From NCBI RefSeq assembly GCF_041146345.1, contig NW_027191406.1:992001-1056000 (forward strand): a stretch of DNA of 64,000 nucleotides, written 5' to 3'. The notes beneath the pieces were generated by a model that saw only the letters and a program-made list of their open reading frames with translations, was not told the DNA's origin and ran no database searches. This stretch comes from Neodothiora populina (Eukaryota). Shown one piece after another: positions 43,210-54,633 of this stretch (positions within the stretch are counted from its first letter, which is position 1; the number at the start of each line of letters is the position of its first letter). The translations under genes were made by a program, and so were the position numbers.

Positions 43210-44954
43210 CTAGTTTGGAATCACACCAGAAGTGTTCGCAAAGACAACACCATCGTAGTCATTGCCGTTGGTCGGATCGGCAATGGTGTAGTTGGCAAAG
43301 CAAGCGTAATCGTAATTGCTTTGGGCATAAGCAGTTTCCTGGCTGCTCAAGAACTTATCCATAGCACACATGCCGTCTGTACGACCGACACAGGCACCAC
43401 CACGGATGGTGTCGAGTGGCAGGATACCGTTGTTGAGTCTCATCCTGATAAACTTGTGGGTAGCATTAGCGGCGTTGTAGCCATATTGATCAGGACGATA
43501 CTGAGTCCTGTGCTTGTGTACGGCAACAGGGCTGGGCGAGGAACACCCGATGACTTCAGTGACGAGACGAGCTCCGAAAGGTGTCAGCTTGGCCATGTTG
43601 AAGTGACGCTTTGGATTGGGAGGAAACTGGGTCAGACTAGGAGCTTCGCGGAAGTAGTCGAGGGACATGGCAGCCATGACACTGATGATGATATCGTCGT
43701 GGCTGAAGTCGGCATAAAAGGGGCGTCCAAGAGGGAAGTCTCTGGCATTGTCTGTGAGAGAGCTGTTGACCGAGCTGTTCGAGCTCGTGATGTACTGGTT
43801 CGTGAGGCGGGCAATGAGCTCTTGCAGATAGCCGATACCTAGCAATTCGTTAGACTCCGTCTACATCAACGCTGAACGGGAGCATTTCTTACCCTGCGCA
43901 CGGCCAGTGGGGTTACCGTAACCGTAGTCGTAATAGTACTGGATATCAATGGTGTTCTCGAAGCCATCCCATTCGTCCAAAGTGAAAAGCGAACAAAAGT
44001 CAGATGAGCTAATGTAGTTCTGCTTACGGGTCAGAGCAGTCAATGTGCTGATACGGCATGTGCGCTCACCTGTTCGTATGCACATATCGACTGCATAGCA
44101 TAAGTGTCGTTGAGGGTCAACTTGAACCCAGCGGGAGCGTAGGCTTGCAGACGGGCAGTAGCATTGACCAGGTATCTGGGAATGTACTTCTCGACGTCGC
44201 TGTCGCCGAGATCGCCAATGCCGGCAGTGTAGTCGTTGAAACAAGAGTCGTACGAGGCAAGAGTATTGTTCTCAGTGCCTCCTTCGGGGATGATGACAAC
44301 GTCGAACAGGTCTCCATCAGTGAAGTTCTTCAAGGTGGGATCAGGCACGGTCTGGAAGGAAGGACCAAAAAAGCCCAGAGCCCAGGAGATCTGACTGTTC
44401 TCGATTCTTGATTGGCCGGTGGTTCTGAGAACAGGCTTAGGTCGCGCAGTACCGTTAGCTGCAGTGGCATTATAAGCCAATTGACCCGGAGCTGCGTTGT
44501 ACAAAGTTCTTCCGTAACGATTCCAGAAGGCAACGCCGGAGGAAAACTCGGTGGCAGCGCCCAAGCCGGTAAGCAGGGATTCGCCCAGCAAGTACTCGTA
44601 CGAGTTCAGGAAAGCGAGAGGTCCGATGAAGGATGTGGCAGGGTGTGCCTGAGTCCAGTTCTTGACCTTGGCTGCGAAGTTCTCGTCGTTGATGCCATCT
44701 ACAAGGTACGAGGTAGGAAAGCGATTGGCATGTCTCTGCAGGGTATGTGCTTGCTCTAATTGACAGCGGTCCGGCAGACCGATGTCATTCACGCCAAAAT
44801 AATCGTCCGCATTGTCAGAGTAGGGAGAGACCACGCCCCAATAATGCGAGATGGTATTAATATCTGTCACAATGCTCTGGTTGGTGGCCGCGACGGCTGC
44901 GGCATTGATAGCCAACAACGAGAGTGCCGACAACTTCACTGTAAAAGCAGACAT
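43210..44954 (-). CDS. Secreted histidine acid phosphatase / 3-phytase
   Basis: Signal peptide, RHANRFP (RHGxRxP variant), ADFSHDD (HD), TPFGARL. Introns 44020-44069 and 43839-43892. Confidence 0.93.
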
Positions 44955-45828
44955 GATCACGAGAAGAGCCGAAGTGAGCGTACCTGCATGAGATAATCTA
45001 CATCGATGGGGGATCGACCTACTTGTATGCGCATATCACCCAAGTTCACATATCTGAAGCACCCTCCGTCATCGGCTAATTGGTTGAGTCGATCGAATTG
45101 CTAAAGCGTGAAGCATCGCAATCCAGAAGCAAGACCAGCTAAAGTGCAGGGATAGTCATGACTCGATTGAGCTATCCAAGCCACGTCCGCGCTCTCCAAG
45201 GCTTTCTCAAAAGTGTAAACAGGCCACCGTCATGACAGTGGTATGCACTGCACTTAGCAATCTACAACGTTCGCGGAAAACGCACCGAAAAGGAATTAGA
45301 CCCTCGATTTCATACTCGCTATTATGTGGTGAGTGAATCTGTGCATTGGAGATAGGGCAACACATGGTATCGGATCTCTCGCCCATCAATTGATCCGATA
45401 AGAAGTCCGCAAAAGCACCATGGCCTGAGCGTGGGTTGGCGTTAAAATGTATGACGCAACCGGGTCAGCAAAAGCATGAGAGTTGAAATCGAATTAAGCT
45501 TAACACAAAAAACTGGCGAATCAATGACAATTCAATGTACCACGGATCGGCCATTGGAGAAAACGTATACAAAATAAACTGGAATAATAGAAAATCATAT
45601 TCAGTACTGCATGTATCGTGACTGCAGCTCTATTGTGATCATACAGCACTTCACGAAACAGACAGGCCGGAATTGATACCCAAGACTCAACAGCCCCGCA
45701 GAAGTCCCCCACCAAGTCGAAAAGGTGCCACGGCAAATCAACATTCAGACAAATACACTTACTTTCCTTAATTCGTTTACACCGCGACTTTACGACTCAA
45801 CATCTTCTATACCGTGGCTGTGTAGATC

Positions 45829-48673
45829 ATGGCGCACCACAGAATCAAGAACATCGCTCTTGACGAGGATGACTTGGACTACTCGGACGGTGACGACTAC
45901 TATGGCGATGACGGGGTTGTGGAGGGAGGAGATGAACTGAGTGCAGAAGATCAAGAGCAAATGCGCTCAGGCACAATCAGTGTCAGGCAAGCCTTAGGAG
46001 AGCAATACGAAGGATTCATCATAGATGCTCAGATACACGAAGCGTTGTGGCACTACTACTACGACGTGGGCAAATCGGTGACATACCTGAAAAGTGAATA
46101 AGACAATTTGATGGTTCATCAGACTCGACTAATGAGTCCTTAGATCAGGCAACAACTCCCCAGCAAGCGCAACCAACAAAGCAACAAAAACCAAAGCAAA
46201 TATCAAAATTCGATCAGGCAGCCGCAGCATCTGCAGCCCAAGCACCTGTGGTTTCAGCAAAGTCCAAGAATGGTAAGCAAATGTTCTTTCTCTTTTTACT
46301 CAATTTTTCTTTTTCTTCTGCGTTCAACGAGCACCATCACCACCGCGCAGTGACACTATGACACTGTGACAATGCGGCGATACTGGAGTCTCTAATCCCA
46401 AGCACTCAAATTCACATCCACTTCCACGGTACGCAATCGCCCCCCGCCGCCCAGCCTCCGCCGATGCAAGCAGTATCTGACAGTCCCGTCTGTACAGATC
46501 GCGACTCTCCAGCCCAGCCATGGGATTTCTTCAAGAACGTTCCCTGGCACAATGTTCCAGAGGAGAGGAAAGGCACAATAGTCACCGAAGCGCTACAACC
46601 ACCATTGCGACTCCTGGGTGGAGCTCCCTCAAAACTAGCTGCTCTGGCAGCCGCGAGGAGGAAGAAGGAGGCTGAGCAGAAAGCAAACAGTCAGGCTACC
46701 GAGCAGGAGGGGTCTGCAGGTCTTTCCCTTATGGACCGTCTAGGGACAAAGCCAACGCGACCTTTACCACCACAGCCGCTCCAATCCTCGTCAAATCAGC
46801 CCACCCAAGACGAGAATGCGTCGCCCGCTGCTTCTCGATCTTATCCTATACGAAAGCGCAAGAGTCCATCACCACCCCCTCCTGTGGCAGAAAGACGTCC
46901 CACTCCGTCAGAAGCAACGATACCTCCGTTAAAGCCTGCTGGACCCCGTGCTTCAGACATACGTGCCAGCCCCTCCATATTTGCCCAAGCCATGTGCGGT
47001 GGTGGTGCTCCACGCCCTTCAGTGCATTCCGAGTCGCTGTTGTTCAGCGAAAAGATTGCTCCTTCTCTTTTGGATCATCGTCCAACTCTTGCTGACACCA
47101 ATCCTTTTGCAGGTCCAAGTCCTGATGATGTAGTTATGCAGGCTCAGGCAAAAGGTTCGACGCGACAGTGAATGCGACATCAACATGCACTGACCACAAG
47201 CATTAGCATCAGCTTCCAAGAAGCAGAGCGGCCAGAAAAAGGACTCCAAGTCTGTATCTGGTGTGACCAATGGCGTATCAGAGATGAGCATTGATGACGC
47301 ACTGCAACCAAAGTAAGGCTCTGTATTTTGGACGTTCGGCGACCACTGTACTGACTTTACATAGGGTCAAGAGCAAACATCTAGACGTGCTCGCAGAGTA
47401 TGAGAGATCAGACCGCAAGAACGCAGCAAGCTTTGTAGTCATTGGTCATGTCGACCATGGCAAGTCGACGTTGATGGGTCGTTTGTTGTACGACTTGAAA
47501 GTCGTCGACCAACGGTCGATAGACAAGCTACGCAAAGAAGCAACCAACATCGGCAAATCATCTTTTGCATTGGCCTGGGTCATGGACGCCACGTCGGAAG
47601 AGCGGGAGAGAGGTGTTACTGTCGACATTGCCTCAAACAACTTCGAAACAGACAAGACGAAATTCACCATTCTTGACGCTCCTGGACATCGCGACTTTAT
47701 TCCGAACATGATCGCTGGAGCAAGTCAGGCAGACTTTGCGGTCTTGGTCATTGATGCTGGTACGAACAGTTTCGAGGCTGGCCTCAAGGGACAAACCCGC
47801 GAGCACGCTCAGCTTGTACGTAGTATGGGCTGTCAGCGAGTCATCGTCGCTGTCAACAAGATGGACAGCGTGCAATGGTCACGGGATCGCTTTGAAGAGA
47901 TCCAGCAACAAATAGCTGCTTTCCTCGAGAAGACTGGCTTCCAGGCCAAGAACATTGCATTTATTCCTTGTTCAGGTCTGACTGGCGAGAATGTCGTTCT
48001 GCCAGCTCCTGAAGCAGCATCTTGGTACACCACCAGCAAGGATACCCAAACACTAGTGGCAGCACTCGAGTCCTTCCAGCCTACAAAGGCCGCCTTGGAC
48101 TCTCCTCTGCGCTTACCCATCTCTGATGTCTTCCGTGGCGGAATCACAAATCCACTTTCGATATCTGGTAAAATCGAGGCCGGTACCTTACAAGTTGGTG
48201 ACCAGATCTTAGCCATGCCTGTTAGTGAGACAGCAACTATCAAAGGCATTGAGATTGACGGTCAACCTGCCGAATGGGCTGTCGCAGGCCAGATCATCAC
48301 TCTTCATCTCAATGATATTGATCCCATCCACCTTAGAGTGGCAGACGTCCTGTGTGACCCACGCAAGCCAATTCGGAACATCAAATCCTTCACGACCAAG
48401 TTACTAGCATTCGAACACGTGTTGCCTATGCAAGTAGATATCCATAGGGGACGCCTGCACGTTCCTGGTCGCATCACACAATTGCTTGGAGTACTTGACA
48501 AGTCTAGTGGAGAAGTTCAGAAAAAGAAACCAAGAGTCGTCCAACCCGGAGCAATCGCTAGGGTAAAAGTGGAACTGGATGCGGCTGTTCCTCTCGAGGT
48601 TCCGAGCAGGATTGTTCTACGAGCGAATGGTGCAACTGTCGCTGCTGGATTACTCGAGCAGGTGCATGCATGA
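45829..48673 (+). CDS. HBS1: Hbs1 translational GTPase (HBS1/SKI7-type locus with optional internal exon)
   Basis: HBS1 N-terminal EALWHYYYDVGKSV; GHVDHGKSTLMGRLL, SSFALAWVMD, DAPGHRDF, NKMD. Exons 45829-46093, 46144-46272, [46498-47154], 47207-47312 and 47365-48673, all frame-checked. Confidence 0.95.
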
Positions 48674-49013: not shown

Positions 49014-50396
49014 ATGGACGCAGCCACAGGACTCATCGGGTTAGCTGGTGCAGGCGCCCAGATCGTCTCAGCACTTTATAAATATGGTGAAACGGCTTAT
49101 CACGCAAATGATGATATACCTGAATTAGCTGGACACATCACTCTGACCAGTAATGTACTGAAAAGCGTCGGCAATGCCCTCAAACAGAAGGAATTCATCG
49201 CTCTGATCAGTGGAGATGCTCTGCAACAAGTGGACGACGTCAAAGAAAGGTGCAATTCTATCTTCCAAGATATAAGCGCTAGTCTCGAGAAACGTCAGAA
49301 GGTGAAAGCGGATGGCTCTGTCGATGTCTCTTTCAGAGGAAACCTCGTATGGGCATTCAAGGCAGATAGGGTTGAGAAACAGAAGAGGAAGTTGGAAGGA
49401 CTAAAGACAGATCTGTTGATCTTATTGAACGTACTCCAATTAGCATCGAAGAGTGCTTCGACGTCAGTTGCTTCGACTCCTTCATGTAGCGACTCTTCGA
49501 ATATCCACTAACGTTATTTCTCTAGACCAAATACAGAAGCACGACCAATAGAAAGCCCAGAGGCAGAAGCTATCCGTATCCTAATGACGAAAAAATCCTC
49601 TGTCGATCGCGCACCTCGGGGCAGCTCTGGAGCGAGTTCTGAGATGCTAAGAGACACTGCTTCCTCTCAGATGTCTTCCGCCGTATCGACTATGAAACCT
49701 GGTGATGTGACTATGAACGAACATCCTCCTCCTATTCGTGCCTCTTCCACAGAGGCCTTCAACACGCATACCATCATCCTCAATGGCGCAGGCACAAGTG
49801 CTTTCACTTCGCCCAGTGATCCCCCGATCACGGAAGAGTATACCCCAATCACGCTCTTTCAGAGAGAGCTCAATAATTGCAGCGAGCTCATCGAGGACTT
49901 CGTCTCAAAGATCTGCGAGGCGCAAGAAACCCTTGGCCGAGATGCTTCTCCTCGCAGTGCTACTGATGTACAGAGTAACGTACGCAAGGAGTTCTACAAG
50001 ACAAGCCATGCTGTCCGCAAGATATTGAATACACCGATCGTAGAAACTAGGTATATGACTATGAAAACCAGCGAGGACGAGGAATTCGGAGGAGCATCAT
50101 TCAACCATGAGATGGAACTTAATCGCGTGTCAGACTTGACTAAGCTTCTTTCTCCCGCTGGGCGTCGTCAGTTGAAGACCGTTCGGTCTCCTCCTTCTGT
50201 TCCTCCCTACGTACCAGCAAATCCATTGAGAGTGTTTGACGATGACACGCAAGCATCGCCAGAATCGACACCAATCCTCGAAGGGGAAACGTGGGATCAA
50301 GGACTAGAACCTGATACTGATCCCATTGCCGATCTCGTCTTCAAACTGACCAATCTTACCGAATTCGATGGCAAGACTCGGCCCGCGAAAGATTAG
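49014..50396 (+). CDS. Protein with fungal HeLo-like (STAND N-terminal) helical domain, no NACHT
   Basis: MDAATGLIGLAGAGAQIVSALYKYG...LVWAFKADRVEKQKRKLEGLKTDLLILLNVL resembles Helo_like_N domains. Intron 49463-49525 joins ORF 49584 in frame. Confidence 0.7.
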
Positions 50397-50805: not shown

Positions 50806-53308
50806 CTAGTATGGCCACTTCCAGCTGACGTAGTCATCGGGGTCCTCGCCGGTTTCGTATCTGTGTGTGGAAAGTCAGCACATGTCTCATCAGGTTTTGG
50901 AAATTTAGATTGGGCGAAACTTACGCATGACTGGCGGAAGCAGTCTTTCTGTCCGCAAAATGCTCACGAGCAGAGGCACCCTTGTTGCCCAAGACGCCCT
51001 TCAAGCTATCAATGGCGAGGATGGCAAGACTGTACCTGTCGGTCTCGTTGCGGATGGCGAGCTCGAGCGGGGTATCGATGTTACCCTTCTCCTTGTAGCC
51101 GCGCACACGCATGAGGTTCTGGCCCTTGCGCTTGTAGGTCAAGCGGTGGATCAACCAGGGGTAACTGTGGAAGTTGAAGACGACGGGCTTGTTGTCGGTG
51201 AAAATTGCTGCGTACTCGTCGTCACGGAGGCCGTGAGGGTGATAGCCGTTTGGCTGGAGCTTGAACAGATCGACGACGTTGACGAAGCGGATCTTGAGAT
51301 CTGGGAGATGCTCACGGAGCAGAGCGGTGGCGGCGAGGGACTCCTGGGTGCTGGTGTCGCCGCAGCATGCCATGACTACGTCGGGCTCCTGACCGGCGTC
51401 GTTTGAAGCCCACTCCCAGATGCCGAGACCCTTACTGCAATGAGCGATGGCCTCTTCCGTGTTCAAGAACTGGAGGTGATTTTGCTTGTCGGCGACGATC
51501 ACGTTGACATAGTTGACGGAGCGGAAGCAGTGGTCCATGCAGCTCAATAGACAATTGGCATCGGGAGGCAGGTAGATGCGAGTAACTTCGGGGGATTTGT
51601 TACAGATGACATCCAAGAAGCCGGGATCTTGGTGAGTGAAACCGTTGTGATCTTGTCTCCAGACAGTGGATGTGAGCAGAATGTTGAGCGAGGCAACCTT
51701 TTCTCTCCACGAGACCTCTGCACACTTCTCGAGCCACTTGCAGTGCTGGTTAACCATGGAGTCGATGATGTGAATGAATGGCTCGTAACTGTTGAGAAGA
51801 CCATGGCGTCCACTCAGAGTGTAGCCCTCCAGCCATCCCTCGCAGGTGTGCTCACTGAGAATTTCCATGACTCTTCCTGTGGTTGCCAATTCGCCACCGT
51901 CACTATCGTAGTTGAGCAGCTCTCCCATCCATTGCTTTTTGGATACCTCGTATACAGCATCAAGCTTGTTGGACTGAGTCTCGTCAGGACCGAAGAGACG
52001 GAAAGTCTCCATGTTGTTGCGGACCACTTCAGCTAAGAACTTGGCGAAGATGTTCATGCTGGGGGCTGATGAGACACCCGCTTTACGTAGATCGAAGCCG
52101 AATTTTCTGAAGTCGGGCATTCTCAGAGGTCGATACAGTACGCCTCCGTTGGCGACAGGGTTGGCGCTCATGCGGCGCTTACCCTCGGGTGCAATGGCCC
52201 TCAATGCTGGGATCAATTTGCCATCCTTGAACAACTCTTCGGGCTTGTAACTTCTCATCCACTTCTCGAGGAGGCCTAGTTGCTTCTCGTCCTTCAAGAC
52301 TTGAGTCAATGGGATTTGATGGGCGCGCCAGTAGCCCTCGAGCTTGTGTCCATCTACTTCTTTCGGGGCAGTCCAACCCTTGGGACTGCGAAGGACGATC
52401 ATCGGCCACATCGGTCGAGTCGCCTTACCCGAGTCTCGAGCTTCCTTCTGGTACTTCTTGATCTTGGTCACGCAAGTCTCCATGGTAGCAGCCATGGCCT
52501 GGTGCATTGTGGGCAAGTCACTACCCTCAACAAAGTGAGGCTCCCAGCCATAACCCCAGAAGAGCGCACGGAGTTCTTCATGGCTAATTCTGGCAAGGAC
52601 GGTGGGGTTGTTGATCTTGTAACCATTGAGGTGGAGCACGGGCAAAACGGCACCATCCTGAATGGGATTGAGGAATTTGGTGCTGTGCCAGGAAGTGGCA
52701 AGCGGTCCGGTCTCACTCTCGCCATCTCCAACCATAGTCAAGGCGATGAGCTCTGGGTTATCGAAGACGGCACCGAATGCATGAGAGATAGAATAACCGA
52801 GCTCACCTCCCTCGTGTATACTGCCGGGTGTTTCGGGGGTAGCATGGGAGCCAATGCCGCCAGGGAATGAGAATTGCTTGAAGAACTTCTGCAAGCCTTC
52901 TACAGTTTCTGATTTGTCCGGGTAAACCTCAGAGTAAACACCCTCGAGGTATGAGTTGGAGATGACGGCAGGAGCACCGTGTCCGGGACCAGAGACGAAG
53001 AAAGCATCAAGGTCATACTTCTTGATGAGTCGATTCATATGAATCCATGTGAAGGATTGTCCTGCATCCGAACCCCAATGTCCCAGTAGTCGAGGCTTGA
53101 TGTGCTCGACCTTAAGTGGTTCTTCTAATAACGGGTTGTTCTTCAGATAGAGCATACCCAGACAAAGGTACATGCTAGCATTGAAGTATCTGTTGATTAG
53201 ATCTAGCTCTTCCTTGGAAAGAGGTTGTTCCTTTATGGTGGACCTTGCCTCTCCCCATGGAGAGAGGTCTCCGACCTCGAGGTCTTTCTCTGCAACTCCA
53301 GCCATCAT
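50806..53308 (-). CDS. xfp: Xylulose-5-phosphate/fructose-6-phosphate phosphoketolase
   Basis: LLGHWG, GPGHG, EGGELGY, GDGESETG (TPP-binding), QDHNGFTHQDPG. Intron 50861-50924, then YETGEDPDDYVSWKWPY*. Confidence 0.97.
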
Positions 53309-54633
53309 GACAATGCTGAGGTTGGATTAGTATAGCTATGGGTGTGTGCTAGGAGGGAAGCTGTCCTGGCAGGGAACGATGCAGCTCTCACTCTTTTAAA
53401 GAGCTCAACGCTCCAGCCAGCAACGGGACGACCGGCCTACGCATTTCAAATAAACGTTAATGGATAGCAAGTACCCACCAAAGTGGTGGAACACACGAAG
53501 GGGTGCTACATAATGATGTCATTCACGCCATTAGGAGATTGAATAGTTCCGTCCTCCGACATTAATTGTCTGTGCCATGTCCGGCTCGCTCGGAAGTATA
53601 GAGTATTTACAGTCACTTCGCCTGTCATCTCTTCACGGGCTAAGAGGTATCAAAAGCTGTAAGGTTCATCGCCTCAGCATGATTGTAATTCGATGCAGCA
53701 GCTTCGCAGGTTGCAGGACATGATCACCTTGTTGCGCAGCGATCAAGGTAAGCTGCAGGATCACAAAGCTTATGCTTCAGAGCTTGGGCCATGTCCCTTG
53801 AAGTAAGGTAAGGTAGGTGTGCAACCCCGCGGTCAGACAAGAGCTGCCCCTCCTTCTCCCGAGTTGACCGAAGCAATGAAGGATGCCTTACGTACGAGTA
53901 CTTACCTTATGATACAGCAACCACGTGTCCCTTAGGACGAGCTTGCGTCCTCTACCATCTAAGCGGATGTTTTGGCGACGTAACAGGTGGATAATTCGGC
54001 CTCGGCCGATTGCTGTTGCCTTTCCTATGCGCACCTAGTGCCAGTATGATAACGCCTCGGGCCCTGCATGAACTAATCCGCTCACACCACCTCAACGACC
54101 TTGATTTTCCTGATCTCCTCACGCACTGTATGCTACCATGTATGCGCTTGTATACCTAGGCTCGTTCGGCATCTGTCCTCGCATCCGACTTGCTGGTTCA
54201 GGGATGTGCACATGATCGACGTTGGCAGCAGTTGTTGCCGCATACCTTACCTTGCTTCGCACCCGTATAACCCTTTCGCAACGTTTGAAGTTTATACAGT
54301 GCTTCTATGACTACTCTAGATCTTGAATTCTCTCGACCACTAACATGACCTTCTTCTGATGTGACTACTTCCATTGGGGTCGGCAGCTGCATCTCAATGG
54401 AAAAGAAAATTAGGTTATCTCACGCTGACCAAGTCCTCTAGGCCCTCGCCTATCAGAGCTTGATGATGCTACAACACTTGAAGAAAGATTTGTATCGTTG
54501 TACAGCCAAGAGCATGCATGAGGGGCATCCAATGATACTCAAGGATGTCTTCTTGACGACGATGAGCTTCAAAATGAAGCCTCGACAGCTTCACTGTAGC
54601 TCTCATTACGCAGTTCTGTAATACTCTTGCATC

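Follow-up and report, generated by a model that had tools for sequence, protein, structure and literature searches.

The analysed window is a stretch of 64,000 nucleotides (nt) from Neodothiora populina (contig NW_027191406.1, positions 992,001 to 1,056,000 of the forward strand), and the subject of this work is the HBS1/SKI7 gene found in it at 45829–48673 (+), which corresponds to locus AAFC00_004258. With exon 1 as the query, two proteins were found to match it at 100% identity, P0161 (616 amino acids, aa) and P0162 (821 aa), both of which are annotated as "hypothetical protein AAFC00_004258 [Neodothiora populina]". The locus most probably represents (probability of about 0.85) the single HBS1/SKI7 gene of this member of Dothideomycetes, with the layout of ascomycete genes, i.e., four introns, the second of which has two alternative 3′ splice sites. 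The phenomenon has already been published, and both isoforms are already present in the public annotation of AAFC00_004258. The gene is composed of the following elements (window positions):

45829..46093 (+), exon 1; starts at ATG and encodes the HBS1 N-terminal domain
46094..46143 (+), intron 1, 50 nt; aaa/GTGAAT, branch CTAAT, TAG; its excision reproduces both public isoforms
46144..46272 (+), exon 2; ends in phase 1, the donor GTAAGC at 46273 being common to both isoforms
46273..46497 (+), intron 2 in its short form, 225 nt; branch TCTGAC at 46476–46481, proximal acceptor CAG at 46495–46497; junction used in P0162
46498..47112 (+), alternative region, 615 nt or 205 codons; in P0162, absent from P0161
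47092..47112 (+), distal 3′ splice site within coding sequence; branch CTGAC at 47092–47096, tract CCTTTTG, CAG at 47110–47112
47113..47154 (+), mini-exon of 42 nt present in both isoforms; encodes GPSPDDVVMQAQAK, the second half of the Patch 4 motif
47155..47206 (+), intron, 52 nt; weak donor aag/GTTCGA, branch CTGAC at 47190–47194, acceptor TAG at 47204–47206; in-frame TGA at 47169–47171
47207..47312 (+), Lys/Ser-rich linker exon (ASASKKQSG...DDALQP)
47313..47364 (+), intron, 52 nt; aaa/GTAAGG, branch CTGAC, TAG
47365..48673 (+), last exon; eEF1A-like translational GTPase (domains G, 2 and 3), stop TGA at 48671–48673

Splice models were assembled from the window coordinates and then compared with P0161 and P0162. 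Use of the proximal acceptor at 46497, together with removal of the 52-nt intron at 47155–47206, yields a protein of 821 aa that is letter-for-letter P0162, and joining of the exon 2 donor to the CAG at 47110–47112 (46272^47113), again with the 52-nt intron removed, gives 616 aa and reproduces P0161 exactly; the junction of the latter reads ...KSKN/GPSPDDVV. Neither public isoform is equalled by the products of a full skip from 46272 to 47207 (602 aa), of the proximal acceptor with the 52-nt intron retained (355 aa), or of the distal acceptor with that intron retained (150 aa). The 52-nt intron is excised in both public isoforms, the GTPase being out of frame otherwise. Acceptors 46497 and 47112 are both phase 1 and share one donor in the second intron. 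As splicing at 47112/47113 leaves the final 42 nt in the public short isoform, the splice event is a choice between alternative 3′ splice sites over 615 nt (46498–47112). The splice sites are considered to be beyond chance, because the exons joined there give the public 821-aa protein exactly; the exon peptide also has many relatives.

The original prediction had described a skippable exon of 657 nt (46498–47154, 219 codons) between the donor atg/GTAAGC at 46273 and the acceptor CAG at 46497, with branch TCTGAC, on one side, and the weak donor aag/GTTCGA at 47155 and the acceptor TAG at 47206 on the other. All of these signals are present in the sequence, the four sites are indeed all phase 1, and the length of the exon is correct. 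The peptides SKLAALAAARRKK, ASPSIFAQAM and NPFAGPSPDDVVMQAQ, which it had read from the exon, were found in the translation, and the stop that it expected after read-through past 47155 is the TGA at 47169–47171. Inclusion had been proposed to give a Ski7-like protein with the GTPase, and the corresponding model is identical to P0162. The in-phase acceptor CAG at 47110–47112, which lies inside the exon and is used by the public short isoform, had been overlooked, as had the tandem acceptor CAG at 47210–47212. Consequently, the proposal that Hbs1 arises by skipping stands only insofar as the same gene gives Hbs1 without the Ski7 region; in the public annotation the 657-nt exon is not skipped as a whole, since P0161 uses acceptor 47112, and a cassette-exon full skip does not account for the public short form of 616 aa. 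The earlier interpretation thus holds in part: it was correct on the logic of two proteins and on the Ski7 motifs, and it mis-typed the splicing event.

Pfam analysis identified HBS1_N in exon 1 (E = 9.1e-24) and GTP_EFTU (6e-54), GTP_EFTU_D2 and GTP_EFTU_D3 in the last exon, where the G1, G3 and G4 motifs of the GTPase (GHVDHGKS, DAPGH and NKMD) are intact in the translation. The Pfam scan of the 657-nt exon matched no domain. Within this exon, the region 46498–47112 encodes DFFKNVPW, PSKLAALAAARRKK, SLMDRL, YPIRKRKSPSPP, RASPSIFAQAMCG and NPFA. With the exon peptide as phmmer query, 1.84 billion representatives yielded 399 matches with E ≤ 1e-3, including 186 with E ≤ 1e-10, and 40 of the matches were used for a conservation alignment. 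The motifs kept in this 40-sequence alignment are DFFxDxPW, LLGGSxxKPSKLAALAAARKKKE, SVxLLDRL, YPxRKRKSPSPP, PSxFAxTMxG and NPFAGPSPDDVVxxAQxKG.

The SKI7-like exosome-binding motif (A+PShFAahL) is represented by RASPSIFAQAMCG, in which P158, S159, F161 and A162 are invariant or nearly so, and which aligns to LAARPSAFASTLC of human 9g8m_E. The Patch 4 motif (PF..SPDDIV) is present as NPFAGPSPDDVV and aligns to both human and yeast chains. Conservation of its SPDD part had been named beforehand as a point on which the original prediction could fail, and F203 and P206–D210 turned out to be invariant. In agreement with the assignment of the exon motifs to those known from Ski7, the profile built from the exon alignment matches the human HBS1L short isoform (9g8m_E; E = 3e-4) across the PSxFA and SPDD motifs, as well as yeast Ski7 (5g06_P, 8qca_E and 8qcf_L; E = 0.003–0.004). 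A putative Ski-complex-binding segment, SKLAALAAARRKK...SLMDRL, aligns to yeast SLLEQLARKRIEK...SLLERL, a weak match with a whole-chain E-value of 0.004 (8qcf_L). The alternative region carries the predicted Ski-complex-binding and exosome-binding motifs of Ski7.

For comparison of the distal acceptor among relatives, 80 related loci from metagenome contigs and the window were grouped into 44 lineages at 85% identity. The bases that form the distal branch point, pyrimidine tract and CAG are at once coding sequence for LADTNPFAG. An AG at the phase-1 position before GPSPDD was found in 35/44 lineages, with a mini-exon length of 42 nt likewise in 35/44, and a branch-like motif lies upstream of the distal AG in 26/44. 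The codon before GPSPDD has A as its third base, where an unconstrained position would vary. The distal AG is missing in nine lineages (L022, L029, L031, L034, L035, L044, L059, L065 and L068). Public annotation was also considered: among 49 proteins from the exon 1 search, nine are shorter than 650 aa and have the GTPase, and seven of these short models (from Neodothiora, Delphinella, Aureobasidium pullulans, A. melanogenum, Cladophialophora immunda, Sclerotinia nivalis and Xylona heveae) have their junction immediately ahead of (G)PSPDD and keep PSPDD. The six that share this junction with N. populina span four classes. The eighth, P0202 (Xylariales sp. PMI_506, 560 aa), has no PSPDD at all and represents a true full skip of the Ski7 region, and the ninth, P0173, is an odd model. 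Judging from this conservation, the predicted distal 3′ splice site is real and old.

The tract CCTTTTGC (47103–47110) and, at the mini-exon end, GCAAAAGG (47148–47155) are perfect reverse complements of each other. An RNA hairpin in which the distal acceptor tract CCUUUUGC would pair with this segment is nevertheless not claimed, its stability and covariation being too weak: the stem is part of the minimum-energy fold, yet the fold is no more stable than shuffled sequences (z of +0.38 and +0.25), and in the 44 lineages pairing within lineages hardly exceeds that between lineages (6.05 vs 5.95 pairs of 8, p = 0.076; run length, p = 0.017). As a separate observation, the stretch past the exon 2 donor is open and read in frame ("GK...") in a Pleosporales-like group (P0181, P0190, P0196, P0204, P0178, P0189 and model P0195), even in a JGI full-length model; in that group, the Ski7 form may come from keeping intron 2 and not from a proximal acceptor.

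The 52-nt intron is absent from 3/44 lineages (L003, L062 and L076), in which KG runs straight into the linker and the GTPase; because these intronless relatives read through there in frame, KG/A is the true junction. L073 is also listed among the relatives without the short intron, its Ski7 region continuing in frame into the linker and the GTPase. The donor of the 41 intron-bearing lineages is located at the same K-G codon pair and is GT in 35 and GC in six (L015, L029, L031, L044, L059 and L079). The GT donors have G at +5 in 32/35 cases and T (24), G (8) or C (3), never A, at +3, and 12 of them are exactly GTTCGA. At the following intron of these loci, the donors read GTAGGA, GTAAGT, GTATGT, GTACAA, GTGAGA, GTGGGT and GTAAGG. 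The flanks of the six GC donors are otherwise alike, and four of these lineages (L029, L031, L044 and L059) are also without the distal AG before GPSPDD; GC-donor lineages may splice GC-AG, or their products may be a truncated Ski7 together with an Hbs1 that arises by a full skip.

Stops within the 52-nt intron are frame-specific. When counted from +6 to the last 20 nt of the intron in 38 lineages, a stop in the retained frame was found in 32, compared with 8 and 11 for the other two frames, and in 12/38 lineages it is placed exactly five codons after the Gly. In a shuffle test in which the donor of L065 was misplaced, 33/38 lineages had a stop vs 16.5 expected (P ~8e-9 on the assumption that lineages are independent, which they are not). 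Such frame specificity indicates that translation of unspliced mRNA has mattered in evolution. Two explanations fit the enrichment: a safeguard by which the frame is closed and the mRNA passed on to decay, or selection for a short GTPase-less Ski7. At the other end of this intron, the acceptor TAG at 47204–47206 is followed 6 nt downstream by a tandem in-phase CAG at 47210–47212, use of which would remove two linker codons (Ala-Ser); the public isoforms use TAG. An alternative donor GTGAAT at 47168 was set aside, since the intron would then be 39 nt long and the product frameshifted.

The Pfam scan also covered neighbouring reading frames at 44040–45035 (−), 50921–53326 (−) and 49014–50396 (+). 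Matches among the neighbouring frames are a histidine phosphatase branch 2 domain (E = 8.5e-22) and a phosphoketolase in which XFP_N, XFP and XFP_C are recognised (E-values as low as 2.5e-168); two neighbouring frames are without a Pfam match.

According to the available portion of Marshall et al. (2013, PMC3597508), the SKI7/HBS1 gene of Aspergillus nidulans has four introns, and both alternative 3′ sites of its second intron were seen by reverse transcription polymerase chain reaction (RT-PCR); an alternative intron just upstream of motif S3 is reported there for three ascomycete subphyla. SKI7/HBS1 is also named among the splicing events conserved with A. fumigatus in the available part of Hurtig et al. 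(2020). As far as these descriptions extend, the gene of N. populina is built in the same manner as those of A. nidulans and other ascomycetes: there is one gene with four introns and two same-phase 3′ sites in the second intron, the Ski7 motifs lie between both sites, and the long form keeps the GTPase. The distal site is likewise just upstream of S3, if S3 corresponds to PSPDD, as we infer here. No essential difference from A. nidulans is apparent from that source; the N. populina case is known from annotation and comparison, not from RT-PCR.

On the evidence of the available text of Marshall et al. (2013) and of Brunkard and Baker (2018, PMC6143672), basidiomycete and plant HBS1/SKI7 genes also carry the Ski7 motifs on an alternatively included segment, but they skip whole exons, whereas the public short form of N. 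populina keeps the last 42 nt. For basidiomycetes, that part of Marshall et al. (2013) leaves it undecided whether inclusion gives a protein with the GTPase or one that stops early, as it does in animals; the ambiguity between forms with and without the GTPase is not new. In human HBS1LV3/SKI7 (Kalisiak 2017), both PSxFA and Patch 4 align to the N. populina exon (9g8m chain E), and this form, too, comes from the HBS1 locus through alternative splicing. HBS1LV3, however, is without the GTPase owing to an alternative terminal exon, while the public Ski7-like isoform of N. populina keeps it, and a GTPase-less form would need intron retention. Ski7 of Saccharomyces cerevisiae (5g06, 8qca and 8qcf) aligns to the exon profile through SLLEQLARKR...SLLERL and PSPDDIIQSAQ; unlike in N. 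populina, its gene is a distinct duplicate that undergoes no splicing and lacks the Hbs1 N-terminus.

Based on the above, the donor at 46273 joined to the proximal acceptor at 46497 would give an mRNA that keeps the 615 nt with the Ski7 motifs, the predicted product being an 821-aa Ski7-like adaptor that retains the Hbs1 N-terminus and the GTPase. The same donor joined to the distal acceptor at 47112 would give a 616-aa Hbs1, the presumed GTPase partner of Dom34. Both mRNAs would share the 42-nt mini-exon and would then need removal of the intron at 47155–47206 to reach the GTPase. Transcripts that retain this intron would stop at 47169–47171 and are probably a minor by-product removed by nonsense-mediated decay. 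Public annotation and the RT-PCR results from A. nidulans suggest that both mRNAs are made in the cell, and a division of labour between the two proteins is likely by analogy with Lachancea kluyveri, the only species for which it has been shown.

Three points weigh against this account. The use of both acceptors in vivo rests on the annotation of others and not on N. populina RNA; the skip from 46272 to 47207 is in phase and is conceivable as a minor form; and the conserved weak GTTCGA donor, together with the frame-specific stops, suggests that unspliced transcripts are translated often enough for selection to act, which sits uneasily with a mere by-product. A search for sequencing runs gave a single one, probably of DNA (share of words, 0.15), from which four genomic contig pieces were obtained; they show no joints, which has no bearing on expression. 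One alternative is that only the long form is real, the 657-nt exon being constitutive and the short isoform an annotation artefact. Although the short isoform of N. populina is indeed known from annotation and not from RNA, this explanation is very improbable: the same short junction occurs in independent annotations of seven species, the distal AG and branch motif are kept at a synonymous position in 35/44 lineages, both sites are used in A. nidulans according to the RT-PCR results mentioned above, and the function of Hbs1 depends on a form that lacks the Ski7 insert, as Marshall et al. (2013) are cited as having demonstrated in L. kluyveri.

The arrangement put forward in the original prediction, in which the 657-nt exon is a cassette and the locus makes three proteins (602-aa Hbs1 by full skip, 821-aa Ski7 with the GTPase and a functional 355-aa GTPase-less Ski7 by retention), is distinctly unlikely. 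In its favour, all the junctions are phase 1, the retained frame closes 5 codons past the exon, and the 355-aa protein would end about as far past Patch 4 as the solved human HBS1L short chain does (residue 267 of 274 is the last one in the profile match). It would also fit the donor that is conserved as a weak one, with +3 never A in 35 lineages, as well as the prevalence of retained-frame stops, the absence of the distal AG from nine lineages and the full skip seen in the Xylariales model P0202; a public 353-aa model from Pseudovirgaria hyperparasitica (XP_033602835.1, P0019) resembles the GTPase-less form. The cassette part is contradicted by the public short isoform, which uses 47112 and not 47206, as do the six other short models in four classes. 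As for retention, the 52-nt intron is removed in both public isoforms, the retaining mRNA would carry a long 3′ region and a further intron after the stop, which probably makes it a typical target of decay, and a safeguard against unspliced mRNA explains the stop enrichment equally well. Short database proteins (200–420 aa from the exon peptide search and 314–449 aa from the exon 1 search) were rejected as transcript evidence: they read through the exon 2 donor, continuing past the exon with G-K or G-E, and their contigs are of genomic size; they are regarded as reading frames called on genomic DNA and not as products of spliced mRNAs.

A narrower possibility is that, with a donor held weak and a retained frame closed early in 32/38 lineages, retention of the 52-nt intron is selected and regulated, so that the locus would also yield a human-type 355-aa GTPase-less Ski7 beside the 821-aa form; on the sequence comparisons presented here, we regard this as unlikely. 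If it were true, the four GC-donor lineages without the distal AG would have moved fully to a cassette-plus-truncated arrangement, and a transition between Ski7 types would be visible within one fungal subphylum. Marshall 2018 is said to describe a transition between Ski7 types across eukaryotes. A literature search on Ski7/Hbs1 intron retention, judged by titles and the openings of abstracts of the papers listed, found no retention-derived GTPase-less Ski7 in an ascomycete; Marshall 2018 may already describe Pezizomycotina patterns.

Under the preferred reading, in which one donor is joined to either of two acceptors in the second intron, the finding is a rediscovery of published, conserved alternative splicing that gives two functionally distinct fungal proteins. 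For annotation, the event would be recorded as an alternative 3′ splice site, with its signals written in codons, and not as a cassette exon. Should unspliced mRNA in addition make a stable GTPase-less Ski7, two of the Ski7 types that occur in different eukaryotes would be combined at this one locus.

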